Shown piece by piece: positions 10,901-45,000 of a DNA stretch of 64,000 bases; within the stretch, counting starts at the first letter, position 1; every line of letters starts with the position of its first letter. Origin of the DNA: Pocillopora damicornis (Eukaryota); the NCBI RefSeq assembly GCF_003704095.1, contig NW_020843392.1, positions 62,001 to 126,000 on the forward strand, written 5' to 3'. The translations under genes were made by a program, and so were the position numbers. The notes beneath the pieces are model-generated. The model made no database searches. It was not told the DNA's origin and saw only the letters and a list, made by a program, of their open reading frames with translations.

Positions 10901-13900
10901 ATCTCATCTTTGATATCTGTTTTAAATAGGAGCAATCAACGTCATTCAATAAAGAACCAGGGTCATCAATGTCCTCGATTCATAGAAGTTAAGTGTTCCG
11001 GAATTTTCTCAATCGCTTTGGTTAACCTAGGCTCCATTTAGACTGAGAAAAAATATTTAGGGGAGGCTAATAAAATGCAGTTCGAAAGTTCATCTATTGG
11101 CGAGAACAGTCAAAAACAGGTTCAGGAAATAAACCGTTTAGCCACGGTTTGCCAACGCAAAAACTGTATAAAAACTAACCTGATGTTTTAGTGAAAGATT
11201 TAGGTGTCTTGGTATTAGAAAATGTTCCTTTTTCTTCATTTCTCTTTTTTTACAGTGTGTGCAACACTAATTTTTATTTGAACTAGTATTCAAGTAACAG
11301 TGTTTTGATTAACTTCGTTGGTGGTTGCGAGCGAGACCAAAACATTGCTACCAATTAAATTCATTATGAACCAAGCTGCACTTGGTTACTAGTTAATTTT
11401 GAACTTTGAAATGGAATCGTCTTTACTGACCTTAAATAGTCTCTCTTGCAGAGAATGAGGTTCGCTTTATTGTAAAGCGTCGATCCAATATCACCAAGTT
11501 TGCACTCACAGCAGTTGCATTTTAAACAACCTTCGTGCCAATAAAGTCCCAAAGCTTCCAACAAGTAGCGATCTGTAATTGGCATTTTGCAGCCGCTGCA
11601 GAGATGAGCGTTTTGCTCTGTTTTTACAAGGCTCTTGTTCTCCGTGGCTAGGTAGAGATGAAGTGAACAGAATTTTACCAAAATAATCACTCAGGTTACA
11701 TCAACGTCAAACAGCTAAAAATTTGTATGTTTTGTATGAGTGAGTGTGGTTTTTAATGCGATTGAGGATTTGTCTTTATTCGTTTTTGTTCATGCCATGC
11801 ACGGTAAATGATTTTGTGATATGTTCCTCTTCGTCTACTTTGAGACGCCAGTTATTTACGCCGTCGAGCTTAGCATTACCTCGTGTTTTTAACATTTAAT
11901 TCCTGTTACTCGATTCATTCTGTCATGTGGGATCACGTACAGAACAAACCAGGTAGATATTTGATATAAATTTAGTACATACCCATGATGTCAGGCTGTG
12001 TCAAGATTTGTCTTTCCCTTCTCTCGAACGAAAAGTGGTTTTCAACGCGCATACAACGAAGTTAATGTCGACAAGAAGTTTTCAACCAGCGATTTCTTGT
12101 AAAACCATTGTCTTCCGGTATGTCATCAACAGTGTTCATTGCTAATGATATCTGGCGGCGACCTAACAAAAACACTGTTATTTCGGCGCGTAATTACCTC
12201 TAATGACGCGACTCTTTCTATTGGCCAGAGTAGACGAAATAGAACAGGTATCCATGAGTAGGGAAAAGAAAACCATCGCAATTATCGAACGCGATAAGCA
12301 AATTGAAAAATGGAACGGTTAACCAAGCATATATTCCTGTCATTAAAATCGGCCCTGTTTCTTACTTTCAGAGGTTAATCAATATGATGGTAAAAACGAA
12401 AAAAATCAGGATATCCACATGGCTTAACGAGACTTTTAAAAGGACGTCTTAGATGCGGTTTTTAAAATCGAAAAAAAAAAACAGCACTCGCAGGATTAAT
12501 CTCTCAGGATAAGAGAATAGACACTAATTGGCCAGCTGTCCGTAGTTTGCATGCAAATTCTTAAAGGTAATTACTATCAAGTTTTGTTTTATATCGCTAA
12601 TGGCTTCTCTTTTATTTCTACGGAAAACAGTTTCAATTGCAGCAAAAAACTTGTAATTAGCCACTGCTAATTTGCCCAACACCCGGGATTGAAATTTGGC
12701 AAACAATTTCTCGATATTTCAGTTTTTGTAAACCTTTCTTCCCGGATGAAATTATGTCTGGTATTTAATCAAACATTTTCCCCTTACTCTAGAATTAATA
12801 TTTGAGAGCTTTAGGGCGGAGAAATTTTTTAGCCTCTACTTGTAATTTAGACAAGAGCGACTTATTAATTGCTCGTTCATTATGAAGAGAATAAAAAGCT
12901 TTTTAAGATGAATAAAAGCGAAACTATCCTTCGCCACAAGCTGATTTACACGGGTACCAAAATTAGAACAATGACTTAAAAAAACACCGCAAACAGAAAT
13001 GGAAAGTTTTACGTTATTTGGCAGAGTTTTTTGTTAATGTTTGTCAAGAAATCAAATATTACCTACTGCACTTTATCTTGATCAATTTCTGATTCCTAAA
13101 TAGAAGAATATCGAGAAAGAACTTTCCACTTACGAGCTTATCACCCTGTAAAAAGCTTATTTGTATTATAACTGCTTTCCTCTCAGTGTCTCAGTGACTA
13201 AATGTAATCATTAATTTATCTACAGCCTCAATCCTTATTTTATTTTTCATCCTTGTGGGCAAATATCCTGCTTGAAGTCTGAGATATCTGTGTTCAGTAC
13301 CCCTCTCGTCAGGTTCAACCTCTTTGCATTAAAACGTGTCCAACTTTATCTGACCCACTAAAAAAATTGTCTTTTGACCAACACGAATTAAGATCGAACA
13401 ACGTTCGGTCTCTGTTAAATTATGTATTGATACAAGTCTCCGATTTTCATAGCCACTCAAAGATTCATTCAGTTTACGAAAATAAACATCGGCTTTACAG
13501 GGAAAGCTGGCGGACTTAAAGCAATATTTTTTTTTATTCAGCCAATTGTGGGTCCTTTTGTACATAAGTCTAACAGAATGAGAGAGAAATTCATTGGTAC
13601 CTGTAACTCAAATACCAAACCTTTGCGACGTTCACTTATCAAGCGTTACACTGAAATTGAAATGAGTCCTCTAAAAACCGTTACGCCATTTCAAAATTCC
13701 TCATAACAACTTGGATCCAAATTTAGCGCAGAAAAAGAATCATGGTTTTTTTTAGGGATCTGTGAGCAAAAAATTGACTCAAGAAATGACTGTAAATTGT
13801 TTTGACACGCGTGCACAGGACGAAGGATATCAATTTGACCTCGTGACAAAGATTTCAATGTAAGCCATGTAGAAATAACATTAACGCTTTGCTTTCAAGT

Positions 13901-16900: not shown

Positions 16901-19900
16901 TAGGGCATGCTGTAACCAGTTTTTTTTTTTTTTTTTTACAAGTAGATTTTGAAAATGCATTTTGCTTCTTTGCATCACTATTTTGTCTTACAGGTAGAAA
17001 TTCTTGTTCGTCGGTTAAATGTCCTCGGGGATACAAATGTCTGGTGATCGACGATCGCAATTATCGATGTAGAGGTAAAGGGTGATACTGTTAAAATAAA
17101 TGCCATCTATTTGGTCACATATTACTAAATTTTAGATATTTGCAAATAAAAGACTTATGGCAAAATAAATATGTTCTATTTTATCGCGTTTTACTTGCCT
17201 TAATGTAACTGAATAGGAAAGGTTCAACGGGAAACGCGCTTTGGATATCAAAAGATCCCTTTAAAGATGAAAAATAATCCTCCATTTTGGATTACATCGA
17301 AAGGCATTAACAGCGTATTTGATTTCTTAAATTCCAAATGTTTTCATCAACTTGTAAATTTCACGATACTTGAGCCACTGATGAAAAACGTTTCTAAAAA
17401 ATATTGAAACTCAACGAAAACGGAGTATAGTGGGGCTTATCCTATACAAGATCTTGATATTTTCATGTCTGTCATACTTTTTTATGATTTTTGCTGTAAG
17501 AACTGGCAGTTCAATCAAACAGTGTTCCCAGAATCATGATTGCCCCTCTCCTCATCATCTTTCTACTTGAAATGCACTAATAGTGTATGGAGAAGTTACA
17601 TAGTTGTCACTTCCGGTGATGGAAAGGGTTTAAACGTCCGAAAGTTAGATTGTTTCGCATCTGGTGTTTTCAAAATTTCAGACATAGATGAATGCAGTGA
17701 GTCACCGCCTGTATGTCTGCCAGGACAAAGATGTGTTAATTACGCTGGTGGCCATTACTGCTCGTGTCGCAACGGATATCGACTGAACAGCATAACCAAT
17801 AGATGTGAAGGTACGTGCACAGTAGACCCACTCCAGTTATTCCCGAGTTAAGCATATTGTTCATAATCACGCTTTTTACCCTTGACATCGGCCAAACCAC
17901 CAACTTTTTAGTTTGAGTTTCATCCGTAGTCATTACCTTGCACATTTAGTGGATATTTGCTTTCCTGCTGGTTACTCTATCTCATGCTGCTGCAAAGAAA
18001 TGATAAACGTTCAACTACCTGTACTCGCATGTGCACTGCTTACAGAAAATGAAGCGCGCACATTTACCACCGAATCTCAGGTTTTCAAGTGACATTTATT
18101 AGCTGGAATCAGCCATCTTGGTTTGTTACGCGACTGCTAAGCTGCTAATTGAAAAGCTGATAGAGCGATTTGCAATCGAGTGTCAAAGTAACCCAGGATG
18201 TATTTTTTTTAGCTTATCTATGCTCTGTGAATAAGGAGTTTAAAAAAACCACGACTGTAATAGCAACAGGAAAGTCACTAAACAAAAGGTTTAATAATCA
18301 GAACAATGGCTGTGCACGTGCGTTAGAAATCTTTGTAAATTTCTTTGCGTTCTTTGCAATGAAGTTTGAGTTGTCTATGGTACGTGAACGACGACATCTA
18401 ATTCTTTAAATTTATATATCTGATTTAACGCGGTGTTCCATACTCAGTTTCGAGATAGTTCTGACAGTAAGAAACAAACTAAAAGACTTTAGGGGATGGC
18501 GAGATTCGTAGGTAAAATATGAGTTCATTTTATAACAGACGTTGTCGACGGCGTTGCCGTCGTCGTTTCCTAAACTCCCTATGGGTGAGAGAGACACGCG
18601 CCGCCTTCTGCATATACTGACTGTGTCTTGCATCAGTTGTTTCTTGTGAATTATACATTTGTGTTTTCTTTGTTTGTTTGTTGGTTTGTATTGGTAATAG
18701 TTTTTTGCGTATGATCAAGCCGTTTAACTAGGCGACACACGCGGTAAGTTTTGACAGATAATGGTAAATTATGGGAATAAGTGGAAAAATACAGTCGTGA
18801 TTGGTTCTTTCACTTCTCCTCTCCCACCAGATATCGATGAATGCACTGAGAGGAGGTCTGGTTGCAGTCAAATCTGTGATAATACACCAGGATCATATGT
18901 ATGTCGCTGTAGAAGAGGTTTTAGACTGGCGGCCGATAAACGATCGTGCATAGGTAAAGTTAAGTGCAATGACCATAATCAGGAGAGATTCAGAGTAGAA
19001 GCTATTCACTGCAAATCCTAAACACGTTTGTTCTCGTTCTCTTCCAATAGATGTGAATGAGTGTCTAAATTCTCCATGTTCCGGTAGAGCTACTTGTAGA
19101 AATACATTTGGTTCTTTTGTTTGCCAGTGCAAACAAGGATACGAGCTGCTTGCCGATGGACTGACATGTAGAGGTATTGTTTGAAAATGAATGGAAATTT
19201 TTTTTATAAAATCGCGCGAAACATCGTGACGCTCAAAACTCACGCTATAACTAACTTCGATCACAATCACTCGACATTCCGCAGAGTTCAGTGGGGTGAA
19301 TTTTTTTGGGCTTTTATCATTTGACAATAACTGCCTTTGATAAGCCTGAGCCAATTCTTATTGGCTCACATACAATTTGTGCGAATCTAATCAGAGGTCT
19401 TGAATAAATTACTGAATGAACCATTTGTAATGGCATTTGTTTCACTTTTGATGGTTTACCAGACAGAAACGAATGCAACAGCGTCACTTGTCCCTACAGA
19501 TGTGTGAACACCAGAGGAGCATATTACTGTATCTGTCCAAGTGGTTATAGTAACCAGTCCCGCTATTACTGCACAGGTGAGGCGAGCAAAAAGAGAGACT
19601 ACTGGCTAGATTTTTTTTTTAATGAATAAGCATAAATTATAAAATAATTTAAATAGTTCGCGCGCTCTGATTGGCCATAAAANNNNNNNNNNNNNNNNNN
19701 NNNNNNNNNNNNNNNNNNNNNNNNNNNNNNNNNNNNNNNNNNNNNNNNNNNNNNNNNNNNNNNNNNNNNNNNNNNNNNNNNNNNNNNNNNNNNNNNNNNN
19801 NNNNNNNNNNNNNNNNNNNNNNNNNNNNNNNNNNNNNNNNNNNNNNNNNNNNNNNNNNNNNNNNNNNNNNNNNNNNNNNNNNNNNNNNNNNNNNNNNNNN

Positions 19901-23692: not shown

Positions 23693-26421
23693 TTATTTTC
23701 CACAGCATTTCCATTGAGCCTTCAACTGCCAGCTGCTACTAACTTTTAACAACACTCCTTTAGCGTTTCCTAAAATATAGAATGAATAAAAGAAAGAGGT
23801 TTACTGGAATGAAAAATATAGGGTCCTGTCAATCATCCTGGTGTAGCCCTGGCGGTGTCATTGTGTCATGTTCTTAAAGAAAAAAAAGGGAAAGTTCCTC
23901 CTTCCGTCCAAGATGGGCGCTGAAAAGATGTCGGGATGTCAGAACGAAATTATATTGCTATACTGTACCCTACAGTTCACCAGAACCCCATTCTAAAGCA
24001 GTGGTAGTTCTCCTGGTCACCTAACCCTTTACACCTTAAGATCAGTACACATTTCCTAACGTGCTAACAAGGAGAATTTTGTGATTAAAAATCGAAGAGC
24101 TTGTTTAGTTGGTGATAATTTCCTTCATTCTCCTGACCTTAATGTGTGACACAGGGGTGACATTGTAAGGAGAAATCAGATGCTATTCACTCTTTGGGGT
24201 CAATGGTTCAATGCTGTAAAAACTCAGATAAACTAAGAAAGGGATGAAAAGTTCATCAACGAATTCGTTTAACTAACACGTAAAAGTAAAGGGTTATCCG
24301 CATACTGGAATTTTCCTTGTAGTCAAGTGATGTACTTAAACAACTGAAGATATTGAGACACATAGGCGATTTCTTAGAGGAAATTTTAAGTTCCCTTTTA
24401 AGTTAAGAATTGCAGCTGACTAGAATGAGTCCCCTTCGTTAATTAATTCTTCTTGGAAAGTCATTTTTTCATAAAGAATATAAATTTGAACAACACGAAC
24501 ACGAAGGTTTCGTCTTCAACATCGACATCGTCATCGTCACCGTGATATGCATCTAATATGCGATATCGTCACATGCTTTGCATGGATGAAGTGCCTTGGG
24601 GACACTACTCATTACTTACTGTGCGCAATGGACTCAACTTAAGCTCGGTTTACTCGATCTGGAACCCTTGCCACTGGTGTAGTTCAAACTAAAATATTGC
24701 GATTGTGGAAGCACAAAAATTACCTCCCCAGTTTCCCTTTATGAAGTCAGATTCAGGATCGCCAGTGTTGGTATGATTTTCCTCAATGGCCTTCTTCTCC
24801 ACCAACCCTGAATCTCTCTTAGCGCTCTTCCAAACATCTTCTTCTATTCCGTACCAGGCTCCTTCTTTGCCTTGTTTGCGCATGTACGCCCGGTTGTTGC
24901 GTGCAATGCCATACAAGTCGTTTCCAACCTGACCAATGACATATCCCACTTGTTGGTCCATAGCTAGATAGATAAATGGAAAGAAAACAATTTGGACAAA
25001 ATTAATGAATAGAGCAAGTCAAAAGAACGAGTCAAGGAACCTGGCTTACCTAAGTTTCTCTTTCAGACAAATAACAAAATATGGCATTACCCGTGTAGTA
25101 ACGTTATAAGAAAAAAATAAAAGAGGAAGAAAAGAGGAAGAAAGAGGAAATAGAGAAAAAGAGAATGGATGCCCCAAGAGGCTTTAATCAAAGCCCCAAG
25201 CACCACAAAGAGTGGAACCGTATAGTTGCAATTTTAGCGATTCACACACTTCCACTCTAATGGACTAACATCATGATCGAGTAATGCCTACAATCCGGAG
25301 TTTCAGTGGTAGCTTAAGAATACTATGACGCCATACTCTCATCCAAGCAGACCCAAAACTAAAACTTGAAGTTGCAACATCGTCTGTCTTGCGTTCTTGC
25401 CCTTCAACTTGTCTGCTTGTTTGATCTAAAGTTCCACTGGTTCACTATGATGCTAATTATCCTTTTGATAAGGCTTTTGTTGATCTTGGTCTTTCTTTAA
25501 TCTTTGGAACAATAAATGGAACAACTCTAAATTCATAACTAAACGACCTCTTAATCTCTCTCTTTCTTTACTAGAACTTTATGTAAAGGAAATTGAAGCG
25601 TATCTACTTTACCAGTCCAGGATAAACCTTGGTCGGCTGTTGAGAAGCAACTTGACTGTAACCTAAAGTAGGAAAGGAGATAACTGGAAAGCTCAGACGA
25701 CTCGTATTGACACGTATGGATTGTATAAAACGGGTTTTTCATGAAGTTTCACCCTGTGAAATAAAAGTTCTCTTCCGGCGAGTAAAACCTGAGAGTCTGT
25801 AAGTGTTTTCCTGGTATTTTTTTGTGAAGGGTAGGCACATACAATTTTTGTTTTCATCTGATGGGGTATTAACGGACAAGTGACTTATATTTAGGAATTT
25901 TCATAGCGAGAGGATAAATCTTGGAGGAAGAGGCATTTTCACAGGATGTATCGCTTGAGAGGGAAATAATTTAGAGGGCATCATAGCTGTGTTAACGTTT
26001 TTTCCACATGCTGACCCCAAAGCTTTCTTAATTGAAAGCTGTGAAATCTGATGCCGGAGATTTACCTAAAAAAACGGCAATAAAGTAAATGGATTCGGAT
26101 TAGCTAGTCACAGGATGTCTTTTGATGGCCAGGAGATGTTTAACTAATTAAGTCGTTTTTAGTCTGTGGCTGATCAAAAAGATAAGAAACAGCCTTTTCA
26201 TCAAGGACAAACTGGAGTTGGACTGAAATCTTAAACTTGTAAAGAAAATTTATTTATAACAGACAACACTGACCTCTCGTTTGATTTCTGGCACACGTAT
26301 AAGATATCATTAGTTACATCAACTAGAAATCCTCTGGTATAAATCTCTAAAATGGAAAGAGCAAACGATGGTAATTGAACTTACTGGAGTGTAATTTGTA
26401 TCGGTAATCACATGATTTCGA

Positions 26422-26457
<36 letters not shown>

Positions 26458-29400
26458 TTAAAGACTAACAAAATAGCACGAGCCCGTAGGGCGAGTGCAA
26501 TTTGTGGTCTTTGAAAAAATTAACAAGTGCTTGTTTATTCCAAATTGCACGAGAACAATCATGTGATTACGTGTTAATAATATACATGGAAAAATACGAG
26601 ATGGCTTATCATAATTAAACATAAGCACAGCGCGCGCGTCGAGTGCAAAAATAATTTATTCAAACCTTGCTTTCGGTCAAAACAACCGCGAACGATCAAA
26701 ACAATAATAAATTGTGTAATGATATCTTCACATCTTTAAGGTGCGAAAAAGGTCAAAGTCTGGCTAAACAGTTCAAGGAATTGTTTAGTCTGTGTCCGAA
26801 TCACTTTCGATAAAATGGAATCGTCATTTTTGTTTTTAATTTCGGCGTGTGATCGCTCGAGCAAAGTGTTAAGCTGGGTCGGCTCGTAATTTTCGATTTC
26901 CTCGGCAATTCCCTTCTCTAAACACCAATTTTTCCAAACTGACAACCAAAGAGCAGTGCTTTTTACAGTGTTTTCGTTGTTTAAGCCGCTTTTCAGCTGC
27001 GGTAGCGAAAGAAAGCCAACTTAAAACACCGGCCATTGTTTCGCTCGCAAATTTTCAAATTTTGTTGCGACATCCAAGGCTCGCATTTGATTGGCTATCT
27101 GTGAGTTTCTTTGATTATTGACCAATCAGAATGTCTGATTTGTTTCTTTCTTTGCACTGAATTAACCCTCTTCTGCACTGAATTAACTCTCTTCTGCACT
27201 GAATTACCTGAAAACTGCATTTATCTTAACCAATCAGAACTAAGTAATTTTTCCATGTATATTATTAAGTCTGAAATCATATGCGTGATTTGAAATCACA
27301 AGTATGATCAGACCAAAATCGCACGACACGAAATTCAATAACTACTTAATACATCCGATTTGAAATCGCAAAATTCAGTCGTTCAGATACCGTTTTTTTT
27401 ATTTTGCGCAAAAGAAAGGAGACGCACCTTCTAGGGCTGGAAGGGTCTGTTCCGGAGAACTTTCACCTGAAAAGAAGAAAACGAAATTTAAACTGACTAT
27501 CAAATTCGATTGTATCCGTGGAGCGTAAGTGATCACGCAAGCGATAGATTCCATCAGGCGCGGAAATATATATCCTCAGATAATTGATCCTCTGACAAAA
27601 GCGAACAGGATTCCGACAGCAAAGGAACTTGTGAGCTTCGTAGAGCAGATATACAGGAAAAGTATATGAGCATCTTTTCAAGCTGTATGGAGGCTCTTAA
27701 GTTTACTATCCGTTGAAGTGCGCAGAAAGCGAAAACAGCCGCCGTCTTTTCAGAACGACTTTTAGGGAAAATAATTTTTGCCTCTTTTTCTTTAGAAAAG
27801 CGAAACGCACTCTCAAATTTTATCGACTTTTAATGAAAAACTCATCACACTGGACGCAAGCTTTGAATATTAAAATATATTATTTGGGGAATATTACCCC
27901 ATATTTCAGTTTCAGTAAGTACATATTCCATGAAGTGAAGTGTTTAAACCATTAAATTTTACATTTTTGACTCGGGTCGCAGGATGTTTTTTAAATCAGA
28001 AACACCGAATTGATTAAGAGGAAACCGCGCGGACAAGGTATGGTGAAAATGCATGTGAGGTTTCATACCAAGTAGATCCTATTACTGTCTTACCTGATGA
28101 TTTGAACTTAAAAGAGACTGGTACGGGTGGAGCACCGTACACCGCCGACAGACTGTAGGGGCTGTATGTCAGCTGTATCGGCGACACAGCGTAATTTTCA
28201 CCCGGAGGCATTATTCCTTTTGGATCCAGCGTCCCTTGGACTGAGAACGACAAACGGTCCAAGAAATGCAATTTCTTGTCCAGGAACTAGACACAGAGCA
28301 TGCGAAGCAATCAATGACCTTCAACATTGGCAGATACTCATTGGGATTACCGGGAAGAAACAGATCGAGGTGCGTTAAAATACGTAGTAATCTATTGGAA
28401 AGTTTCAAGGCAGAGGGGGGCAGGGATCTGACAGGCGTATATAGATTGTGTTTTATTTGTTTGTCCGTTCGTTCACCTCTGAACTCATTTTCAGGACGAG
28501 GCCAAGTCCAAAACCCCTCTTATGAGAATAAGTTTTAACCCGTGGGCAGAATATGAACGTGTAATCTGATCGTCCGGGGGTTGCTTCTGAGAAGCACCAT
28601 TGTCGGTTAAGTGCCTGACACTTTGACAACCTGAGCGAGAGTTATTATAAGAGTCGACTGAGGAGTTGTCGTTTGTAAAGTATCATAAGTGCGGTTCGTG
28701 TAATCTGATTGGTCAGTTTAGCCGTGATACTATTGGCTATAAGACTCAACCTGCGTAAGTCAGTCGTGATTGGTCAGTTTCGATCCCGTCAGTAGTGTCA
28801 GGTTATACTGTGGGCTCGTTTGTGGTGCAAATGTTATGAATAAGTCGTTTGTAAAGTGTAACGCAAACGATTTTTCCATAACATTAACACCACAAGCCTC
28901 TCTCGCTCTAAAAGCAGAGGTTTTGCATATCTCGAAAATCTTTTATGTCAGTCCTGTCGATTGTTCGTTCTTTCAGTCAACAAACGACTCCCCTGCTCAT
29001 TGATTTTCTTTTCTTTGCAGGTTGGTCGGCTCGCCGTCTCGGTTTTTCCGTGCGCTGGGTTCTTGATTATCTTATTAATTTGGTCCTTCTGTCTGTCTGT
29101 TATTCTTTCCATAATTTCGTCCATCTAAGTGTGCGTAGGCCTTTCGTTCGGTTTATCCGTGTATCCGTCGGTCTGCACGTGTGTCTGTTTGTCCGTCCGG
29201 CCATCAGTCTGTATATCAGTTCGTTTGTCTGTCTGTCTGTCGGCTGGTCTGTGTCAATCTGTCTGTCTGTTCGTCCGCCTTTCCCTCCATTATTTCGATT
29301 TTTTATTTCACACTTTTGTGGCATCCTATTTTGTTCAATTATTTTATTTATCTTGCTACTTACGCTAAACTTGGGTCCTTGCTGAGTCTCGATGTAATTA

Positions 29401-32400
29401 ATTCCAGAGTCGTAATTCGCATCAGAATAGGTAACATAAGGTGGCAGCATCCAAAACACATTAACATTTTCTGCATATTGCTGAGAGTCTTCGTGATGAG
29501 ACACTGTTCCATTGAAATAAACTTTAGAGCTGAAAGGAATTCAGAAATTTTGAATCATATTGTCGATCCATAAGTCTGTTACATTTAAAGTCAATATGGA
29601 CCAGGGTTTGATTTTCTCTTCGAAATCACAAAGAGCGTTTGATATAGGTGAAAAGGTAGATTTTCATTTTAGAAGATACAGTATGAGCTAGAAACGAGAA
29701 CATCTTAAGGATTCATGTGAATAGTCTGAACAGCTTTGACTTTCTTGTTAAGCTAAGTTAGATTTAAAAACTTGCTAAAAATAAGAAGCTTGATAAAATT
29801 CCCCATAACAATCTTAGAGCTGGGTGAGTCTAAAGATTATATACACCTTCGTTATCAGATCAACCTGGGCGTAGGTGAACATTTACCTACGAAGCAAGTT
29901 GAACTTAAATACAGTGTACTTATTGAGTGAGACTGAAGGGCCAGACGAGAAAATATTTTGGCTCGAGGTCATGAGTTACGGCGCCGGACCGAGCGCAGCG
30001 ATCTGACTCAGTCAAGCAGCATTTCATCTTACAACTACCACTCTTCCTTTCCTCTTTCAGCCCTCATATCGTGGGGCTGCACAAGGGAAGTAGGGCTCTT
30101 CTCGGAGGCGTTTGTCCGATTCTTTTCAATAAAAGCGCGCGGGGGACCATACGGAATATATCTTATCAGACGTTCTGGTATGCAGTATCGCTGAGTATTG
30201 TTACGAGTTGTGCCGTTCGGGAACAAAATACAAACAAAGAGTGTAATCACTAAGCAATACTACACACCAAAAATTCTAATAAGTTATTTTATTATCCTCC
30301 CGTTTTTTTCTGCCAAATGATTCCCCTCATTTCTCATAAGGCGGGAAAGCAAAACGGATAGAGAAGTGTAGTGCGTGCAGCCGCCCAGTGAAACAGGTTT
30401 TTCTACAGTACAAAATAACCAAATGTATAATATCGCAGTATATGCGTACCTTATGCGCGCATTATTTTTACTCTCCTTTATGCTGTTGGAAAATAAATTT
30501 TTAGCGCATTATGCAAGCAACAAGGGACAAAAAGCTACATACTCCATAAAGACGTTAAAAAAATTTTATCTCCGAAATCAGTCATTTTAATTACCTGTTA
30601 CTCAAAGTGGTCGAATCTTTGCAAGCCAACTTTGAATCTTGCAAAAAGCAAGAAGCTTCAATCTGTAAGATTGGTCTCCTGTCTTGGGGGACGTCAGCAA
30701 TGAGCGCCACATCACCAATCCACATCATGCGTTTGCCACCCCTCACCCCAACCCCCACCCAGTGCTTGGAGCCATTTGTCACGTTGGCGTGGTCGTTCAC
30801 AACGATTTCAAACTCAATCTCGATCTTGTTTTCGGGAGCGTCCGAGTCTCCATTCTTATTCTCTACCTCACCGAAATCAATCGAACCACGATCGTGAAGT
30901 TTTGTGTCTCCAACAGTTGAGTTGAGGGTTGCCTTTACGCTGCTAAAGTCAATGCCGCTGTTGTTGACGATATTTTTCCCCACACTTTTGACTTCAAGCG
31001 AGACCAATGACATGATTGAGGTCCCGTTCACAGGAAGAATGACCTGCAACAGTGAAAGAGATTCGCTTAGCGTTGCAGTAGAGAATTGCGACTGATGAAG
31101 TGTGTCTTGGGCCAACAATACCTTGTCATTAGCTTTCCTCAAGCGAAAGAAAATGCTGACTACTTAAGGCTAGAAAGCACGAGTTTGGCTTAATAGGGAG
31201 AACCGCTTTTAAACCTAATCTACCCTGTCTCTTACCCGCTCAATAGAGAATTACATATACTTCCTTCCCTTAGTTCCACAAACCAATTTTTTGATGCGCT
31301 ACAGAAACGCGTAAATGTAAGGTAGATATAACTTTATCCCAGTGGGTTTGTGCGTGGTCAAAAATGAATGGTTTATGTGTTTGTTTAATTATGTTTTTGG
31401 ATGTTCCAGATTCCCTAGTGGATAGAATGCTGTTTAACAGCTATTTTAAAGGTTGTATTTTTTACACCCCATCTGTATCCATTCACGTCTTTAATTAGAA
31501 AGAAGGAGAAGCCCGTGTTTCCAAGAAAAAAAAAAGTAAGAGTGACTTCTGTCAATCACTGAATCCACTCTTGTACAATACAGTCTCCTAATGCTAATAT
31601 TTAGCACTAACCTGTAACATGAAGAACGTGAATTCTTGTGAGAATCTATTCTTAATCCTCTATTGAATGTGGTCAGAAAGCTGAAGGTCATTGCTTCTTA
31701 CAAAATTAAGGTGGCAAAGAATTATTCCTAGCATTTACAGCTTTATTTAAGAGTTCATTTACCTCTACTTTCAAAGTGGACTTCATTTTTCGCATCAAGA
31801 TGCTGAAATTAAATTTGGCGCGGCCACCTATGCGTATCTGATTGGATGAGCCGCTGAGTTTCAATGAGAATCCTGGAACCCCGGCCACGTAAGGCGGGGA
31901 AGGCTGGTGACTGGTATTGAGCTTCTCATCTCCTCTCATGTTCTGGTATTTAAGCTGCATGAAAATGTCTAGGGTCTCCAGAGGAGAGATTTTGTCACTG
32001 ACTTCTAGATCAAGTTTTCCAGTAATCTCCTGGCCTAAAAGATTGGGCGTAATAAGAAAGAATGAAAATCTATCAACACTACAAGTCAAGAACAAATACT
32101 ATAAGTATGCAAATTCCTTGTTATCATGGGCCGTCATGCGAGGACTGTGTTCACAAGTTGTGGAAAATGGTTGGGTTGAAATATAATTCAAAGACTTGCC
32201 AGAAGATAGTCAAATGAAAACTGTTTACAAATCTATAAAATTTATTGTTGAGTTTCATGTTGACGTGTTGCAACAATTCCTCCTTCCAGTAAATTCAATC
32301 TTTCGCATGCATGAAATAAAACCATCTTAGACTTTTCAACCTCTTTAATATACCCAATGACAACATCAACTCAACTTTCAAACTTAAGAGAAAGCTTGGT

Positions 32401-35400
32401 TGATATTTGGAATTGATTNNNNNNNNNNNNNNNNNNNNNNNNNNNNNNNNNNNNNNNNNNNNNNNNNNNNNNNNNNNNNNNNNNNNNNNNNNNNNNNNNN
32501 NNNNNNNNNNNNNNNNNNGAATAGTATTATTAAAGTTTTTATCATAGTGAAGGGCTGAAAATTAAACTAACAAGATCTCCGTTTCTAGGCTTGGCTAAAT
32601 CTGTATATTCTATCAACAAACTGTGGTTCTGAAACATTGTAACAGTCGACTAACCTTAACCTTAGTTTTTTTTTTTTACATACCTTGTGGAAGATTCGGG
32701 ACGGAGGATTCATCCGAACGAAAACCATCTATTATATTCAGGTCTTTGTTCGCGTTGCCTGACTCGTTGTAAACACCTTTCAGAATTCTGAGAGTGTTGG
32801 AATAGAATGATATTCGCACGTTTTTGGCGTCTTCATAAGACGTGTTTTCCATGTGTTTTACAACCCAGGTAACGGACACTTTGTCTCCGATCAGGTATCG
32901 ATTGCTGGCAGTGTCGTTGACGGTTGTGAATTCGGCAGTTAACGATGGCTCATGCTGCTCGTTATAAGTTACAAAGGGATAAGAGAAACGCTAGTATTTA
33001 AAACTCCTTGAGTTGGTTCGAAAAATATTTATCTTGTATTTTGTCAAAAAAAGTAAAGTAGCCACTCGTCGAGATTAACCCTTCACCAACTAATATCATA
33101 TATGACAGATAGGGTATATACGGGATATTGTTATATAGCTGGCAGCACCCGTGGGCAAGATGAAGCGAATCCTGTGTTCCGATAGACAAACTGTGCTAAT
33201 AAGAATCCACTTAAATTTTTGGTCCATAAAAACTCAAAAAAGGGAGAGAGAAAAAAGAACTCTTCCAATACCCAGCCATCTTTACCTCACGCTTGGTCAA
33301 TAACGCATACATATGACGAACTATTATGAAAAAATGCATTTTGAACTGACACACCTTGTACACAAACAGTGCCTCTTGTCCAACCCACAGCATCTGATAT
33401 CCACTGCGCATGCCTGCACCTACCCAGTGTTTTGAGTTATTAGCCAGTTTAGGATGATCTTTGATGGTCACATTGAAATCTATGACAATTTTTCTCTCGG
33501 ACTCATCGTTCCCGGTGACCTTCAGAGAGAAAATAAGTACAGCGAAGTTCAACACAATTTCAAACGTAATCCTAAGCTACAGTGGTTTTGTTTTAATACG
33601 CTTTCCGGCTTGTCGTGAAAAAAAATTGTGCTGCCTTCTTAACCAATTAAATGCAAAAGTAGAATCAATTACGACTTGATCATTCAAAATTTCTTCTTCC
33701 CCTCCCCGGAGTTCTCATTAGCTCCTTCGGTTTTTTCCCTTGGGTCTGATTAGCCGTTGTGAGTACTTTCATAATGTATATTTCGCCACTCTCGATGACA
33801 ATTTTCTCTAAACAGAAGTAAGATGTACATAAGCGCTACTTCGAGAAAGATGTTAAAAAAAAAATACTGTTGGAGCACAAGCTGAAAACGCACGATCGTC
33901 ACTGGTTTAAAGGTTCAATCGAGGTTTTAGGTAAAAAGTAAGAAAAATTCATCCCTTATTACCTCACTGTTCTCGTGGACCTAATTAGAGTGTGGGAAAT
34001 CGCGCGTATAGGAAGAGCTTAAACCAATAGTGACATTTAGCACCAGGGTTTTCAGCGGAAACCTCGAACGACAAACCGGTGGAGGTCACGTGATCAAGCC
34101 AAGAGGTAGGTTTTCACGTAAGTGATTTAGCTGAACGTTTTTTATCCTGAATTTGTTTTTATGCCACGCACAAATCAGAAAGTTTTGTAAACCAGTCTTT
34201 TTAGAACAAGTTTAGATATATTTTTTAGCGAATGAGTGAAAATAGGACTTCTTGTTGCCATTTGAAAATCAAACACTGCTGTTGTCTGGAAATTCAATAC
34301 GGCGTAAATTTGCTTGAGGTTGGAGAGGTGTAGCTAAAGCGGTAGAAGCCATAAACGTCAAACGCCAAACTCCTAACCTGAAACTGCCTTTTCAGGTTTG
34401 CTGTTAATGCGAAAACCCTGGTGCTAAATGTCTCTAATTAAAACTTTTTGAGTGAGCAGAAAATTTCAACTTTTAATTAAATGTAGTTGGTATTTGAAAC
34501 AAAATTTCAGACATGAAATTCTCCAGCTATGTATGTTATTTTAGCAATTGTTCGCCTCAGGTTCCGTGAATATTGTTGAATAATACTTGTGACGAAGTTG
34601 AGGGGATTATTGAGTAACATTCACTGACCTTGAGGCAAAAGATGTTTATCTTACAGAAAATATTTTTTACTTACAGTTAAGTTACCAAAATCCAGAACAG
34701 CGCGATCGTTGAAAGGTACTTCCTCGCTGGAGTCATACGAAGCTATAGGGGGCTGAACAATTTGTGCAGGTGCAGTTTTTATGTTGGTTCCCACTCTCTT
34801 GACCATCACATTGTGCAGTTCCATGAAAGAGAAGTCGTTGATGTTGGTTGTAATCTCAACGAGCAGGGAGAAGTCCAAGTTGGGCATGGTGATGGTCATG
34901 CTATAACCTGTCGTGTTGCCCACCCACAAGTCTGCAAGTCATTTCAAAAGAAAATATTACACTTATCTACCTATAGGTCTGTAGGTGGTATTGGAGAGAA
35001 AATTACATTAATTCATGTTCAAGACGAATAAATGGGCAAAACTTTGAGATGTGTTGTGCCACAAATCTGGAGATTCACACCAATGCTGAGTAGTAATTAC
35101 ATTAAATCAATCAGTTAAATGTATCTTATTAAAGATCTGAGGATATGTTTTAAAACAACACCAGAGCAAAATGAATATCTTTATTTAGGATACACTCGAT
35201 TGCAAAACTGTTAACAACTATAAAGCATGATCCATGAACAAAGAGACCCTACGGACTTAGCACAGGTACATAATCAATGCTTTACTTTTTCATTATTCGT
35301 GAAAATCTTTTTTCAAGATAATTCTTTTCTTTTTAAAAGTGTGGATGATTTCGATCATTTACCACATGCATCTTGGTTATCATGTACATGTGTACCCATA

Positions 35401-38400
35401 AAGCGGTTGGGTCCCACTGTTCGTTGCGTATGCTTTTTAGAATCAACGTTTTTATTTGCAACAGAGTTTATGCCTCACAACTTAATGGTGCTCTTTACGT
35501 ACGCTAATCGGCTGGCTAGGAAGTGATCGGTGATTAACAAGTACTATTCAGTTCCGAACAGCCGTAAAAAAGACAAAATCAAACTTCTTAAGTTTAATTT
35601 CTGACTATTTTTCTGTATTTTGACAGAAATAAGCTATTTTTTGGTTTGTTTCTGTGTGGCATGAACCAAAACAATTATTCACCTCAGTGTCGGTGAAAGT
35701 TATTCATCTCCACTTCTGTGAATAATTGTTAAATTAAATAGGCCATCTCGCACCGTCAATTCGCGAATCTCTAAGGGAAGTGATAACCAGTGATACTTAC
35801 ACGAATAGTCAATCCTGGACAGCGACACCGTCGGAAAAACAGCATATAGGGTTGGTTGAGAGGAAGCAGGGCCATAATGGTAATTACTACCACTGCCATC
35901 ATTACCTGTGACCAACACAGAAAAGTAGAGATTTGCCAAAGGCTGAATCGAGCTTTTAACAGTAGCGTTGAAAGCGACGTACACCGCGGCTGCACTTGCC
36001 AGGTCTGCAATCTCGAATGAAATTGCACTTGAATTGTACACAACTCCGTTGATAGCTCCGACCAGAGAGCCTTGCTCAGGTTCAAGAAACTGGGACCAAA
36101 GAACGACTTTAAGTTGCTTTACTAAGTCAGCGGATGCTGATTGGTTGTGAGTCAGATTAAGGGTGAACTGAATCTTGTCGCCAATGTTGTAGTAGGTGAT
36201 ATTATGGACCACCGGGCTTAATTCCACTTTGAGTGACTTGGACACCGTCGAAGGCTGAAAAACAGGAGTGTTGGTAAATGAAAAGTTCATCATTTGTCTC
36301 CCGATTTAGATTAATCATTTTTATTTCATAATTTATTTTGAACTTCTTAATTCTGGACTATCTCAGTGTAGATCGTTTAACTTGTGCATTTATTGATACT
36401 TCCCGATTTTTACTTGATTAATGCCAACTATACTTAGAAGGAACGTTTATTACAAACTTGTATTTGTATCAGTGAACACCTTCTTATTCAAATACATTCA
36501 GACGCCATGAGCTAATAGATGTGGCGCAATAGAAATTCTTCGTTATTACTATAGTTACTATCATCATTATTATTATTATTGTTAGAATTATTATTATTTA
36601 CATATGATATGGCCCGTCTGACAATATGATGCATATCTTCATTGCAATCTTCTTCGAAGCCGTTGCTGCAAGCTGCATCTATGAGACAAAAGACTCTGTT
36701 GAGTTCATAATTAAAAAATGCTTCTTGACGTAAGAAGAAAAGAGAAGAAAAGAAAAAACAGCTTTTTGGTAATGATTTCGTTTGCTGTCCTTGACATCCA
36801 ATGGAAGCCATAAAGAAAAAAAAGACCTGCACATCTTACAAATGGACATGCCGTTTGCCAAGTACGGACAGATGTCAAACTCTTAGGACTAAATTGTCTG
36901 AAGCGCAGATGTGTTTTCACCCTCAATCAATAGAAAAAACGAAGGTATGGTTTCACTCGCCTGAATTAGCAATTATCAAGGCAGTCCAGTTTTCTACATG
37001 GTGAGACATCCACGTGCGTGAATATAGAGACCAGTCATTATTCATGTTCTAAGGGGTGGGGGCCGAGAGGGCAGGGGGGCCGGAGGATTTTGAGGGGATC
37101 ACATGGTTTTCAGAGGGCAAGTAGTCTTCACTAATAAAGTATTTCGGGGGGACCGTACAAAGTTGACTGCTGATTGACTGCCAGTGAAGAGGATCATGAC
37201 AATATCACTAAACCTTATGGATGTGATCGGGTAAATTTCATCACAACACAACCAAAATGCTCCTAACACCCCTCCTTGTCCTCCCCCCCCCCCCAAGTGA
37301 TAAATAATAATGATCGGTCACTAAGTGGGTTCATTCAGAAACGCTTCTTGAATCAAGTTGATTCTTATTTATTAACTCCGTTTCTCCTCTTAATTTGAGA
37401 TGAAAACCATTATTTGGCAAGCACTACTGAGTCGACGAAAGAAGAATACTTTAACTGAAAGGATTACTCTTACGTACACTTTGTTTGGCTTACTTCTTTC
37501 ATTTTTATGGCAACCTAAATTGGCAGTCGACCAATAGCCGGGGTAAAGCATCTCTGACACCATAGAAAAAATGCAGCGGAAATGTTTTATACTAAAAGTG
37601 TTTGTTTGAAATCCTTTTCGGAATTAAAATCAATTGCCAAACCTTTAAAGATAACTTCTCCTAAGTGAACTGCATCCTCCTTCATCGAGGACATTTTGTC
37701 AAGAGAGCCGATTACGTTTATTCATCTTTGAAACAAAGTTTTGCCAATCGGTGCAAACATTTTCACCTACTGGGTTTATGCTCCCTCAAACGAAGTGAAA
37801 ATATTTCAAATTTACGCGCGAATTACTGAAAAATCCCCTTTGGAAAAGTTCTCTATAGCAAAAAAATATAAGCATGCAAATCTTCGTCCCTGTCTCGTTC
37901 ATATTGTATTTCAAGCTGAAGCACGGCTGCAACTGGGAAGAATTTCGGTCAGGAATAAATATCCTTTCTTCTTCTTTAAGTTAGAGTCTACAATTTTCAT
38001 CTGCTAATTAAGAGCAAAGTCTCTCCTCCCCTTTTCACCTTTTAAACAGTTTCTTGTTTCTTCACTTCAGGAAAAAAAGACAATATTTTCTTTATTGCAA
38101 GGTAAAATTAATAATGTCGGCCATCTTCTTGACGAAACGTTGTTGCGGTGCAAGAATAGCCTTGAATCTTGGTCCAAGAATAGTCTTTTTTCAGAGTTTG
38201 ATTGCACCATGTTCATTGCTCGGCCGACTTCAATTTACTTTTGAATACGGAGGATCCCTAACTACGTCTTTTAGAACTTAACTTGTTTTTATGAAAGCTG
38301 CGCCAAACCAAATATTTGTGGTGAACAAGTTATATCTGCTGAGCTCAGCTCAGAGAAGATTCGTACAACGTTATATTGAACAAACGTTCTAAACATACTG

Positions 38401-39770
38401 AACTCTTAACCTTCTCAGTTCATTCAGACGAAGTTCATCACCGATTTTGAAAGAAAACCATTCCAAAGCCTCCCGCTAAACTAACTAAGATAAACGGCAC
38501 AAAAATATCACACAAAAGATATAGCTTTACAGGAAAGGAAAGTCGCTATGAATCCCGGACATTTTCACGAACGTCTTGAGTGTTGAAGACAGCTCACCAG
38601 TTCAAATTATAATAACAATTTTGTAAACTTTACATCGCAAAACCAGTCGCAGTTATGATCTGTCAACAAAGATTTCGGATGATACTGGCTTAGAGAAGAA
38701 GAAAATGGCTTTTTCAGTTTATTTCGAGGCCTAACATCATAAAATTATGCAGAGGGAAACTTTTGTGGATATGATATGATTCCGCTCGGAAAAAAACTTA
38801 AAATCAACAATTTATTCTTTGTATTATAAAGGTGTTGCAAGGCAGTCCTCTGTTTGTATGAAAATTGCTCCATTATCTTCATAAAGCATGGATGAGATAA
38901 AAATCTTAGTATCTTCTGAATCTTTGGATTCAGTTTTAAACTGGCCTTTAGAACACCGCATAAGCTCAGCGTCTTCGGGCTTCAAATATATTACACATCA
39001 GGGGCTCTTCGCCTATCACTCGTTAATAATGTATAACAACAGAAAATTATACTAAGTCACGGCCGATTATGCAGTATTTCCCCTCTCTACGGAAATTGAA
39101 GCTGTGCGTCGACTAGGAACATCATAAAGTTCGATATAAACTTGTGCTCTTTTAGATGCGATATTTCATAAGAACAGAAGTAGCGCCTTTCGAAAGCGGG
39201 ATTCCATGCTGGCCATACATAGAATGTACCCTTTTCTTGTCAGTTAAGAAGTTAAATATTTTTCACACGTAAAATAAAAACATCTGGATTAATAATGGAA
39301 ATTCAACAAGGTTTCTTCTTGTTTCAGACTTCGGATAACGGAAAATTAAAATTTCATGTTGAATGTAAAAATTTTTCCTGGAGCTCGAGAAACTAGTTAA
39401 GATTTGATGCTGAATGTCGACTCCATGAAATATCTTAAACTCGCTTCTGTAGTATAACGTTCACCAACGGACCAAGATTTATTACATCGCAATCTTTTTC
39501 GCATTTTGTTTGACTATAATTCGTAATTTCTGGATTGTTATAGCAATAAAAACCGGCGTGAAATGGCATCTGCGGCTGTAAAATTTCGATAAATTGCGGT
39601 CAAGGATTAATGTAAAATTTCCCTAATGTCCCTCGAGGATTAAGCTTAGATACAAGAACAGAATTATCGCTTTTATACTTACGTGCGATAGGTCTTCCGG
39701 CAAAGAATAGAGTTGAAAAACAACAAAAAAGGAGATGAATTCCCCAAAACGAGAAGATACCCGCGTTCAT
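23693..39770 (-). CDS. Uncharacterised secreted glycoprotein (~956 aa, 15 exons) with alternating A/B beta-sandwich-like repeats and an Asp-box-containing C-terminal module
   Basis: Exons: 39770-39683 (signal peptide MNAGIFSFWGIHLLFCCFSTLFFAGRPIA), 36678-36602, 36254-35801, 34931-34675, 33519-33355, 32954-32684, 32034-31763, 31043-30595, 29529-29364, 28286-28094, 27466-27428, 26346-26274, 25662-25613, 24963-24724, 23769-23693 (..KAQWKCCGK*). All introns are GT-AG and phase-compatible; 2871 nt with no internal stop. Clear internal repeats (DFG..KI.I(D/E)F..DH..N.SKHWVG.G.R.G..M.W.G twice). Confidence 0.88.
24022..24208. mobile_element. MITE, TAACCCTTTA..TAAAGGGTTA family (degenerate copy)
   Basis: Starts TAACCCTTTACACCTTAAGATCAG. 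The interior is largely the reverse complement of the copy at 47210-47420. Confidence 0.65.
26370..27380 (-). mobile_element. Non-autonomous Crypton-like (DUF3504/ZMYM-KCTD1-QRICH1 type) element with palindromic end
   Basis: Minus-strand QLKSGLNNENTVKSTALWLSVWKNWCLEKGIAEEIENYEPTQLNTLLERSHAEIKNKN (~26830-27000) resembles the N-terminal NT.K.T.W..W..L...L..FYAE.K..G region of CryptonA/DUF3504 proteins and is truncated. There is a ~165-bp inverted repeat at 26404-26570 and a 21-bp tandem repeat (TGCACTGAATTAAC(C/T)CTCTTC) at ~27153-27207. Confidence 0.7.
28545..28800. repeat. Decayed Penelope-like, hammerhead-associated interspersed repeat
   Basis: CTGACACTTTGACAACCTGAGCGAGAGTTATTATAAGAGTC resembles a decayed reverse complement of a CTGAAGA-stem-GAAAC minimal hammerhead repeat recalled from cnidarian genomes. 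The catalytic core is not intact. Confidence 0.35.
29020..29285. repeat. Low-complexity GTCT/GTCC/GTCG microsatellite-like tract
   Basis: Degenerate tetranucleotide run in intron 9 of the secreted-protein gene; it generates spurious ORFs. Confidence 0.75.
34028..34436. mobile_element. MITE with ~26-bp terminal inverted repeats
   Basis: TAGTGACATTTAGCACCAGGGTTTTC at 34028 and GAAAACCCTGGTGCTAAATGTCTCTA ending at 34436 (one mismatch). Confidence 0.85.
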
Positions 39771-42017: not shown

Positions 42018-45000
42018 ATGTATAAACTCGACCTTCCCGTAGATATGAAGGAGAGCGCTGCCATAGAGAGGCGACGGAATCGAGAATTGCAGCGCCAAAG
42101 TAGGATTTTCAACGCTCGTGTTCGAACCATTGGGGTAAGTGTTTATTTCTTGTAGATGTGGATGGTAACAATGCTGATAATAAGAAAGTGAGTCAAAGAG
42201 ACAAGTTAAAATTTTGTTTTGATTTTAGTCAAGCAAGAGTAGTGTTTCCTATGACTTTGTTTTCGTATTTGTCTGAATTCTCTTGTTTTTCTGACGGAGA
42301 ACGCGAAACTGGGTTTAGAAATGAACACCTATTGAAATTGGTCTGATCTGAACCACCTGTAGAACCACATCAGCTAGACTACACACGTATGATTGCTTGT
42401 GGGCGTTTTTATATCGTTGAAACATTCTCAAGAATTTTACGTGTTTTTATTACCTTAAGATTGACTTGAATGCACTCAACGAGCAAGTGCAAGATCGTAC
42501 ACGACGCGAAGTTGAAGAGGAGAGGCGACATAATGCGTTCGGTAAGTCTCAATTTCCTGAAATGTCAGACAGTTGCAAACGAAAAACATTCCCTACACAT
42601 GGCCACGATCTTTCCTTTTTGTACTGTTAGAGGTAACAATATCAACTATTAGGTTGTCATTATAACAGCAAGGTTTCTGGCTTAGGTAACTCGGATGGCC
42701 GATTACGAATTCGCCAGTAAGCGCGGCAAGTAGACTGGCCCGTTAAATAGCAAAAACTAAATTGGTGCTTCTCAGCCAATCAAACTTTTAATCAGAGTTG
42801 ATAACTTTTTTCGGACGTTAACGTGGCTATCAGTAAATCAGCGACAGATGAACATACGAAATAGTACCTGTGTTTCTGTAGTTATTTTAGATCATGTGTG
42901 CAGTGCAGATAGGCAGGCTAATTTGATAGAAATATCTACCTGTAGTAATGTGCCATCAGGTAGCCTGGGTTGATAAGCATTTCTATCCAAAATCTTTTAA
43001 CAAGATGACAGGAGATTAAGTGGGGTGGGAGCTCAAGGACAGTGACAGCCACTAGTCAAGATGTGTGTCGAAATGTCTTTACCCTTTAACTCACAGTAGT
43101 GATTAACATGAAACTTCTCCCAATAATATCCAAACTTTATTCAGCAAACAGGTAATGAGAATATTCAAGCTTATCAGGTAGAAACAGCTATCTTGATCTA
43201 GCACCAAGTTCCCATAACTTATTTACAAGGAAATATGTAGCAGCTAGAGGGGAGAGTTAATAGTCAGATCTTGGGAGTTAAAGGGTTAAGGTGTCAACCT
43301 ACTATCAGGTCATTGAGACATGGGATAACTTCTGGGTGATTGTTGGTCGACTGCTAATTAATATACTGACCAAGGCTACTAATAGTGCACATGATGGATG
43401 CTCTACCTTGACTGAAATATGCTTCTTTGTGATGATTACAGCTGCTGACATGACAAGAAATGATAAAATCACTGTCTTGCTTCAGAAGCGTCAGGAACAT
43501 GACATGCGTGAGTTGAATAAGGCTGTGAATGAATTCCGTCAATCTTACCAGCAGCCATATGATAGACGTGAATTTGACTTGAATGATCCGGATAGTTTGA
43601 AGAAAGACAAACCTGCCAGGGTATCTGATGATGACCCTCGTTGTGGGGTGGCATCACTTCAGAAGTTTGTTGGGGAAGATTTGAATGGCAAGGCACGTGA
43701 AAAGTTACAGCAAGAACAAGCACGGTAAGGGATAATATTTAAGTAGAGAGGGTTAGTGACTTTTATTTACATTATATCAAGACTGATTTACATTAAAAGA
43801 TCAAAACAGACCAGCAAATTTCATAACAGTAAGGCAAGTTGCTCAATGTTACAGAACAATAATGTAGGGTTGTTCAGAAATTTGATGCAATAGTTGTCAT
43901 GAATCCTGTGTTTGTGACTCTTTGATAGTTAAAATTTTAATATCCCTTTCTGAATTTATAGGGAATGGATCAAGCAACAAACAAATGAGAAAGATCAAGC
44001 TTTGGCAAATCAGAAGTATGCAGACCATCTTTATGATTTAAAGGCAAGAGAAATGGACCAAAGAGCTTGTGAACTTGCCAGTGCTGAAGCAGATTGCAGG
44101 CGTGCAATAAATATGGCAACTAAAGATATGAACCAAGCTTTGGCAAGAGAAAGGAAGGCTAAAGAAGATGTAGATAAACAACAGGAACAAGATGACAACT
44201 TTACTGAAATATCAAACTCTGTGTTTGGTGACATGTTGACAGAAAATCCTGATGTGGCCCAGAGTGCCTTTGGACCTCACAGGGTGATCACTGATCGCTG
44301 GAAGGGTATGAGCCCAGCTCAACTGGCAGAGATAAGACGTATTCAACACGCGCAGGTGGAGGAGAAGGAGGTTAGTGTGATTTAGTGTACAGGAAACTTT
44401 TGATCAACATCCTTGATAAGTTCTTGGAAAATCTTAAAATTTGATTGTCAAACATCAATACTCAAAACTTGATCTTCTAAACTCACTTTGATTGTTGACA
44501 ATAGCAAATTCAAGTTTTGAGCTGAGATTGTCAATTTACAGTAGGTATTCTTTTGAGCAGTAGTTACAAGCATATCTATTATGGGCTCTCAAAGTCTAAA
44601 GATAATTAAAGTAAATTTCAGACTTACAAAGGAACTTTTTTAGACATGTTTGTTCATGACTTATGCTATCATCAGCTTAATGTGTTTATTATTGTTGTTG
44701 TCTATAGAGACTGAAACAGGAAGAGGGAGAGCAGGAAAAAGAATACAATAGATTGAGGTTGACGCAAGCTAAGGCAGGAATAATAGCAGAACGGGGAATT
44801 GAAAGAAAGAAAAAGGAGATTGAAAAGGACCAGGCAGATGAGAACAGAAGACTGGCAGCTGAACAAAGAGCCAAGTAAGTTTTCCAGTAATTCAAAAGTT
44901 CAAAGCTATAATACAAAGGCAGCCATGGTTACCCCACTTGCACCTTAACTGAGACATTTACTAGTTGTTGGCAAGACTGAAGTTTTACCACTCGGAGGTT

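Follow-up and report, generated by a model that had tools for sequence, protein, structure and literature searches.

Among the described systems closest to the protein reported here, sortase-assembled pilins have a C-terminal sorting signal with a hydrophobic anchor, integrin alpha chains contain an N-terminal seven-blade propeller as well as a transmembrane helix and tail, and alpha-2-macroglobulin and complement C3 are built with a thioester motif and a ring of macroglobulin domains. A further system is the CLIPPER/DUF11 domain (PF01345; PDB 9ifr). According to PMC12617251, isopeptide chemistry involves a Lys on the first strand, an Asn on the penultimate strand and a catalytic Asp, some DUF11 domains have no isopeptide bond, and eukaryotic isopeptide-domain hits were judged false or contaminant, being without homologues in related eukaryotes. 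We analyzed a minus-strand gene in a 64,000-nucleotide stretch of the Pocillopora damicornis genome (NCBI RefSeq assembly GCF_003704095.1, contig NW_020843392.1, positions 62,001 to 126,000; hereafter the window, in which all positions below are counted unless a contig is named). An earlier note, made from the sequence alone, had described its product as an unnamed secreted protein with alternating modules (A-B-A-B-A) resembling DUF11 and pilin-like folds. The gene proved to be spliced and expressed, and it belongs to an invertebrate family that has been neither described nor named.

The coding span (23693..39770) consists of 15 exons, placed by coordinates (Table 1), with a 2871-nt open frame encoding 956 amino acids (aa) and a stop; the start ATG is at 39770 and the stop codon ends at 23693. 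The model was built from the minus-strand reading with splice sites set by phase, and all 14 introns have GT..AG boundaries. Among the joints listed, RNA contigs from four runs of four studies directly showed 13 of the 14 introns as CT..AC joints, 12 of them in all four runs and one in three. Intron 2 is supported by one RNA contig, in which exon 3 is placed at record position 301, exactly where it should begin if 20 adaptor bases, 203 bases from exon 1 and 77 from exon 2 precede it, and by the gapless match of the model to a 956-aa database protein (P0001, from a 3502-base contig) at 97.6% identity. The 90% cluster of P0001 contains P. damicornis pdam_00019095. The 15-exon structure put forward earlier therefore translates openly and is joined by RNA. 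The transcript extends from at least ~39885 at the 5' end to beyond 23011 at the 3' end. A candidate extra exon at 37474-37553 was rejected, as it broke the frame and was skipped by the RNA joint 36678-39683. An assembly gap (Ns, 32419-32518) lies within intron 6, and since RNA joins across it, no exon is concealed there. Intronic multi-copy elements at about 23800-24700 and 26400-27400 attracted many RNA contigs of other loci and a high summed depth.

The motifs quoted in the earlier note are present in the translated protein, and the many sequons, few repeat Cys residues and lack of a transmembrane segment that it had reported were all recovered: there are 22 N-x-S/T sequons and 10 Cys, just 2 of which fall within the five A and B modules, and 19-residue windows with hydropathy above 1.6 occur only in the N-terminal signal. 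A hydropathy scan of the whole chain revealed neither a membrane anchor nor a sorting signal, and the C-terminal end, W-K-C-C-G-K, has no hydrophobic window. The signal-like N-terminus, the absence of a further hydrophobic segment and the sequons suggest that the protein is secreted. Its domain order is A-B-A-B-A, followed by a 13-aa linker and a sixth domain, designated domain C (aa ~811-956). The five A and B modules thus stood, but the conserved C-terminal domain, a hallmark of the family, had been overlooked. B1 and B2, described earlier as closely similar, are clear repeats (HH-align probability 99.7, E 3.8e-26). The alternating order was likewise recovered by profiles and by five predicted sandwiches, but the presumed likeness of the A modules was not: profile alignment probabilities were 57.5 for A1-A2, 0.2 for A1-A3 and 2.7 for A2-A3, and all three modules were detected only by a profile iterated from A3 over the family, whose scores are inflated once members are included. 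Self-BLAST of the protein model identified no internal repeats, and profiles were required. Because the A and B family profiles did not align significantly (probability 2.6), the case for common ancestry of A and B comes solely from fold and Atlas features.

An initial search returned 15 proteins (Stylophora, Oculina, Porites, Acropora and Nematostella, where named), with 59-83% identity to P0001 in corals and 38% in Nematostella. Profile searching of 1.84 billion representatives yielded 331 proteins at E 0.001; 150 of these matches were used for the range and names given here, and 20 of the 150 were looked up by name. Among the matches listed, 19 of the 20 were named relatives, from Lingula, Ptychodera, Nucella, Owenia, Lineus, Lymnaea, Sinanodonta, Haliotis, Diadema, Saccoglossus, Liolophura, Antedon, Hydra, Branchiostoma and Porites, which cover cnidarians, molluscs, an annelid, a brachiopod, a nemertean, hemichordates, echinoderms and amphioxus. 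Their only labels are 'uncharacterized', 'hypothetical', 'unnamed' or 'F5/8 type C domain-containing', so the proposal of an undescribed secreted-type family agrees with these matches, although its range, from Hydra to amphioxus, is far wider than corals. The family was present before the cnidarian-bilaterian split. In 20 family proteins nothing scored above the NCBIfam cut-offs, and a low-sensitivity search of prokaryote genomes gave 13 pattern matches, none of which was confirmed. Eight of the nine rows of one search (P0230-P0233, P0235-P0238) were dropped, having matched through F5/8C only, and 10 matches in the coral's own genome were likewise F5/8C-only.

This distribution bears on a possible role confined to coral calcification, as a protein of the skeletal organic matrix. 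It is of secreted type, predicted to be glycosylated and well conserved in all stony corals found; however, non-calcifying Nematostella has an orthologue, and relatives occur in Hydra, a nemertean, hemichordates and amphioxus. The Stylophora and Acropora accessions were absent from every full text searched and from the supplementary files of two coral papers, most skeletal-proteome supplements lying outside that search. We consider such a calcification-specific role quite improbable.

A typical relative has the architecture (EGF-cadherin)-convertase site-B(7)-A-F5/8C-C. Among 90 proteins of at least 400 aa, a count that includes isoforms and near-duplicates, the orders included A-B-A-B-A-C (22), B7-A-C (21), A-C (18) and B-A-C (9). 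Domain C was present in 84 of the 90 and terminated the chain in 79 of these 84; the number of stalk modules varied freely over the family while domain C was retained. In 30 scanned relatives, recognition modules were inserted at the A-C slot or the N-terminus, including F5/8C (17), cadherin (5) and C-type lectin (2) domains, as well as SUEL lectin, TSP1 and EGF. A dibasic site immediately precedes the first module in all 17 hand-picked proteins with intact N-termini, 15 of which have R-x-K/R-R by eye; the Pocillopora protein itself has V-R-R only. EGF and cadherin domains lie ahead of this site in Nematostella and several bilaterians, and 12 stony-coral proteins have a short two-Cys segment in their place. 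The F5/8C form occurs in corals too, since a paralog in the same genome (G000:C4385, about 301600-307300, plus strand; L004 9661-10000, L005 1-5330) carries exons that encode B, A, F5/8C and C. The coral and Nematostella proteins clustered in a quick domain-C tree, 30 of whose 65 branches were left open (Shimodaira-Hasegawa-like approximate likelihood-ratio test, SH-aLRT, 94). The same tree contained a 15-row A-C clade (P0152, P0226 and 13 other rows; SH-aLRT 99) with varied N-termini (EGF, TSP1, SUEL lectin, trefoil); its two named members are Hydra proteins, which suggests a lineage expansion in Hydra. A separate observation is P0203, a giant Cys-rich crinoid protein (3801 aa) with A modules and domain C at its end.

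An AlphaFold model (39-row alignment) was all-beta, with five sandwiches and a sixth beta domain (mean predicted local distance difference test, pLDDT, 79.6; predicted template modeling score, pTM, 0.51). Compared with 48,161 structure representatives, its best fold matches lay in the stalks of pilins and fibrillar adhesins and in integrin legs. These best matches included BcpA (Z 13.2, root-mean-square deviation (rmsd) 2.6, 131 residues aligned), SSA1632 (Z 13.0), EbpB (12.9) and TTHA1873 (12.8). The CLIPPER/DUF11 crystal structure 9ifr matched A3 at Z 12.8 (rmsd 2.4, 121 of 123 aligned) and RrgB matched B2 at Z 12.8; B1 alone had a lower top score, 10.5 to CppA. Tied with these were the alpha-2-macroglobulin receptor-binding domain 1ayo against A1 (Z 12.4, rmsd 3.1, 124 aligned) and, among the Foldseek top chains, integrin-alpha legs (Z 12-14, rmsd 10-16 across a multi-domain span). 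Searching solved structures by sequence gave no match for the full alignment and one irrelevant match for A1 (E 0.58). A and B are predicted, from the models, to belong to a known fold class, the CnaA/CLIPPER-like sandwich, and the 7-9-strand CnaA-like sandwich that defines CLIPPER is seen in the predicted model against 9ifr, though tied with non-DUF11 folds.

Each of these systems differs from the coral protein in other respects. CLIPPER/DUF11 proteins resemble it in the CnaA-like sandwich, the tandem use after a signal peptide and the alternation of two related domain types, whereas the coral gene has 14 introns, a convertase site, N-glycan sequons and no anchoring domain, its modules score below the DUF11 cut-off and lack the Lys-Asp-Asn triad, and its B modules have no match to the DUF11 hidden Markov model. 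Gram-positive pilin D2-type CnaA domains (BcpA, RrgB, EbpB, LrpA, SpaD) share the fold of A1, B2 and A3 (Z 12-13, 120-140 aligned), but at 5-14% identity, and the coral protein has no isopeptide residues, cell-wall sorting signal or membrane anchor. Three consecutive sandwiches of the integrin-alpha thigh and calf legs align to A2-B2-A3, but the N-terminal propeller, transmembrane helix and cytoplasmic tail of integrins are absent. The similarity to alpha-2-macroglobulin is a single-domain match of A1; unlike that protein and complement C3, the coral protein has no thioester motif (no Cys in a G-C-G-E-Q context) and no macroglobulin ring, and no A2M Pfam family was listed.

The earlier note had taken the A-module motif as a sign of kinship with DUF11 domains of prokaryotic surface proteins. 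A DUF11/pilin-like fold is indeed predicted, and weak DUF11 scores in A modules and the Atlas neighbors point the same way. All scores were below the Pfam gathering cut-off of 24.6 bits (coral exon 3, 15.7; Ptychodera, 17.7; Nematostella A2, 22.8, the best relative); DUF11 was detected at E<=1 in 4 of 121 family members and gave no candidates in the coral's own genome. Every Atlas neighbor was of DUF11 type. The whole protein gave 0.82, to be taken only as a lead, and B1 gave 0.93 with 151-163 shared features; true family members typically share 170, and the measure is not calibrated for parts of proteins. The motif does not point specifically to prokaryotic proteins: integrin legs and macroglobulin tie in fold, and calf-1 exons of the coral's own integrins carry the same G..V.V.N....A.N..V..P pattern. 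Three of these exons were within the top five A-profile scores, none significant (best E 0.017, 231 open reading frames); integrin Pfam families, including calf-1 (PF20805), were absent among the families listed in the Pfam scans, one of which listed 25 of 62 families. The sequence evidence on the origin of A and B leans weakly to DUF11, and the calf-1 exons, which share the motif and score weakly, tell against its specificity. We also observed four integrin-alpha calf-1 exons within about 115 kb, which form a tandem integrin-alpha cluster (G000:C3230 256556-369233; L007-L010).

The top folds, CnaA-type isopeptide domains (BcpA, EbpB, CLIPPER and RrgB), together with Atlas neighbors that are DUF11 and isopeptide fimbrial clusters, might suggest a true pilin-like fibre subunit with intramolecular isopeptide bonds. 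We examined strand register conservation, not model coordinates, for the residues of this bond, taking the third strand to be the Asp strand, as in the DUF11 pattern. In each of the five coral modules, the residues that face inward on the first, third and penultimate predicted strands are hydrophobic, and across 265 B and 135 A domains the same columns are mostly at least 0.9 hydrophobic (lowest 0.71), with Lys, Asn or Asp at no more than 4%; the penultimate strand of B is entirely free of Asn. Judged from this conservation, the triad is absent and an isopeptide bond is very likely absent as well. With neither sorting signal nor membrane anchor, the pilin-subunit explanation is already largely refuted and hardly credible.

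Domain C (~145 aa) was modeled with confidence in a Hydra homolog (35-row alignment; pLDDT 87.9, pTM 0.81) as a helix plus three sheets, two of which have four strands. Its sheets amount to about three blades. Nearly all of its fold matches are beta-propellers, with a best Z of 7.4 and no chain at Z 8 or above; Foldseek found no match at E 0.001 among solved structures, and none at E 0.001 was present in a viral fold library. The two-blade oligomeric lectins BambL and RSL match at Z 5.1-5.2. Domain C resembles two to three blades of such propellers, but the match is weak and tied with many unrelated propellers, and domain C has an extra helix and strands. Asp-box and Kelch-type propellers close a ring of five to ten blades within a single chain; no such ring was found in domain C. 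Modeling suggests that domain C looks like a half-propeller with no close solved structure. Cys840 is invariant, and Cys829, Trp888, Gly936 and Trp951 are near-invariant.

One Asp-box-like motif in the sequence, weak matches of three long relatives to a glycosylhydrolase model (E 0.001-0.01), and the presence of GH74, YCF48 and Vps10p propellers among the weak fold matches raise the question of whether a partial Asp-box glycosidase or Vps10-like propeller makes up domain C, in which case the protein would be an oligomeric enzyme or a sorting ligand. We regard this as very improbable: the glycosidase scores are 15-18 bits versus a cut-off of 175, only about three blades are present, and the invariant and near-invariant residues are Cys, Trp and Gly, with no acid or nucleophile.

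We propose, with evenly balanced confidence, that the protein is a secreted, dibasic-trimmed, glycosylated stalk of five sandwiches which holds out a binding, possibly self-associating domain C and serves as a spacer or cross-linker of matrix or mucus. It would be secreted through its N-terminal signal, and cleavage by a convertase after HHIVRR would remove the pro-region. The five predicted sandwiches would then form the stalk, whose length is presumably set by module number, and the constant C-terminal end, flanked in relatives by swappable lectin-type domains, probably binds matrix or glycans. Two copies of domain C might come together to close a beta-propeller. The protein would act as a sticky spacer or cross-linker in extracellular matrix or mucus. 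One Saccoglossus relative (P0148, 1217 aa) has two domain C copies, each beside a C-type lectin domain; such duplication within a single chain would agree with C domains pairing up.

Several observations weigh against this proposal. Full-model pTM is just 0.51, so that a rod or a compact arrangement of domains is not fixed. Propeller Z scores for domain C are middling and fall within the range of a chance arrangement, and the high pTM of the monomer would equally fit a self-contained domain. The Pocillopora copy lacks any recognized lectin domain, and no functional, localization or proteomic evidence was found in the full texts searched or in the supplements of two coral papers. Identity to Nematostella is 0.51 and 0.42 for the B modules versus 0.28 for domain C, and the last strands of B1 (aa 313-351 region) are invariant at 22 of 30 positions in 13 anthozoan proteins. 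The B modules, the most conserved part of the sequence, may therefore be the working surface, or a second binding surface, rather than passive stalk.

The lectin-type domains swapped in beside domain C in relatives, the likely Hydra expansion in the quick tree and the tie with the alpha-2-macroglobulin receptor-binding domain would also suit an agglutinin-like soluble protein, comparable to lectin-tipped or macroglobulin-domain proteins, that serves defence or recognizes microbes in mucus or body fluids instead of acting as a structural spacer. Immune families evolve fast, however, and the coral-anemone orthologue is single-copy by search, with 60-83% identity among corals and no thioester motif; a defence role is a possible but rather doubtful explanation. 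A more specific version of our proposal is a secreted fibrillar-adhesin-like animal protein whose stalk derives from prokaryotic CLIPPER/DUF11 with loss of the bond, contrary to the contamination view, and whose half-propeller tip dimerises into a lectin-like ring that cross-links matrix or mucus; we think this unlikely.

Literature searches (accessions; DUF11 with coral or with metazoa/invertebrate; discoidin, cadherin, mucus proteome and coral) gave no description of the family. Twelve family accessions were absent from the full texts searched, supplements being mostly outside that search, and neither the supplements of PMC7902050 (6 files) nor those of PMC9673494 (12 files) contained any of the six identifiers sought in each. 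The proposed function and a bacterial origin are both tentative, and what is described here is an undescribed family, with no new mechanism yet. This family is ancient, extracellular by prediction and widespread; its domain types A, B and C have no Pfam names, and domain C has a confident model but no close solved structure. PMC12617251 dismissed its eukaryotic hits, and this family, whose gene contains introns, would establish a bond-free CLIPPER-like fold as a true stalk module of animals. It also offers a test of kinship among integrin legs, macroglobulin domains and bacterial adhesin stalks. For corals, it provides a conserved, expressed candidate component of matrix or mucus, with an orthologue in Nematostella that is amenable to knockout.

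Table 1. Exons of the Pocillopora gene and neighboring genes in the window
Feature	Content	Position	Strand	Basis
Exon 1	Signal peptide (aa 1-29), probably cleaved behind A-H-A at 31, judged by eye	39683..39770	-	Hydropathy and conserved P[IML]A.AAC
Exon 2	Short acidic pro-segment with two Cys; ends HHIVRR/A, a likely convertase site	36602..36678	-	
Exon 3	Module A1 (aa 58-196) and first strand of B1	35801..36254	-	DUF11 E 0.02, profile alignment, model
Exon 4	Middle of B1	34675..34931	-	
Exon 5	Last strands of B1; most conserved stretch of the protein	33355..33519	-	
Exon 6	First part of A2	32684..32954	-	
Exon 7	End of A2 and start of B2	31763..32034	-	
Exon 8	Remainder of B2, then the A3 strand 1; candidate disulfide C660-C669	30595..31043	-	
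Exon 9	Middle of A3	29364..29529	-	
Exon 10	End of A3	28094..28286	-	
Exon 11	13-aa linker; in relatives, slot for F5/8C or C-type lectin domains	27428..27466	-	
Exon 12	Start of domain C (RGF..D...YVC)	26274..26346	-	
Exon 13	Domain C, Asp-box-like T-x-D-x-G-x-S-W and family-invariant C840	25613..25662	-	
Exon 14	Domain C, second blade and helix	24724..24963	-	
Exon 15, coding part	End of domain C, W-K-C-C-G-K-stop	23693..23769	-	
LMO-like gene	Two LIM-domain exons	9895-11690	-	
RIB43A-domain gene		43282-44385	+	
Fibrinogen C-domain gene	With upstream coiled-coil-like exon	56470-57769	-	

Among the neighboring genes, the LMO-like gene lies between plus-strand EGF-domain exons at 5631-6122 and 17540-17848, and would be nested if those exons form one gene.

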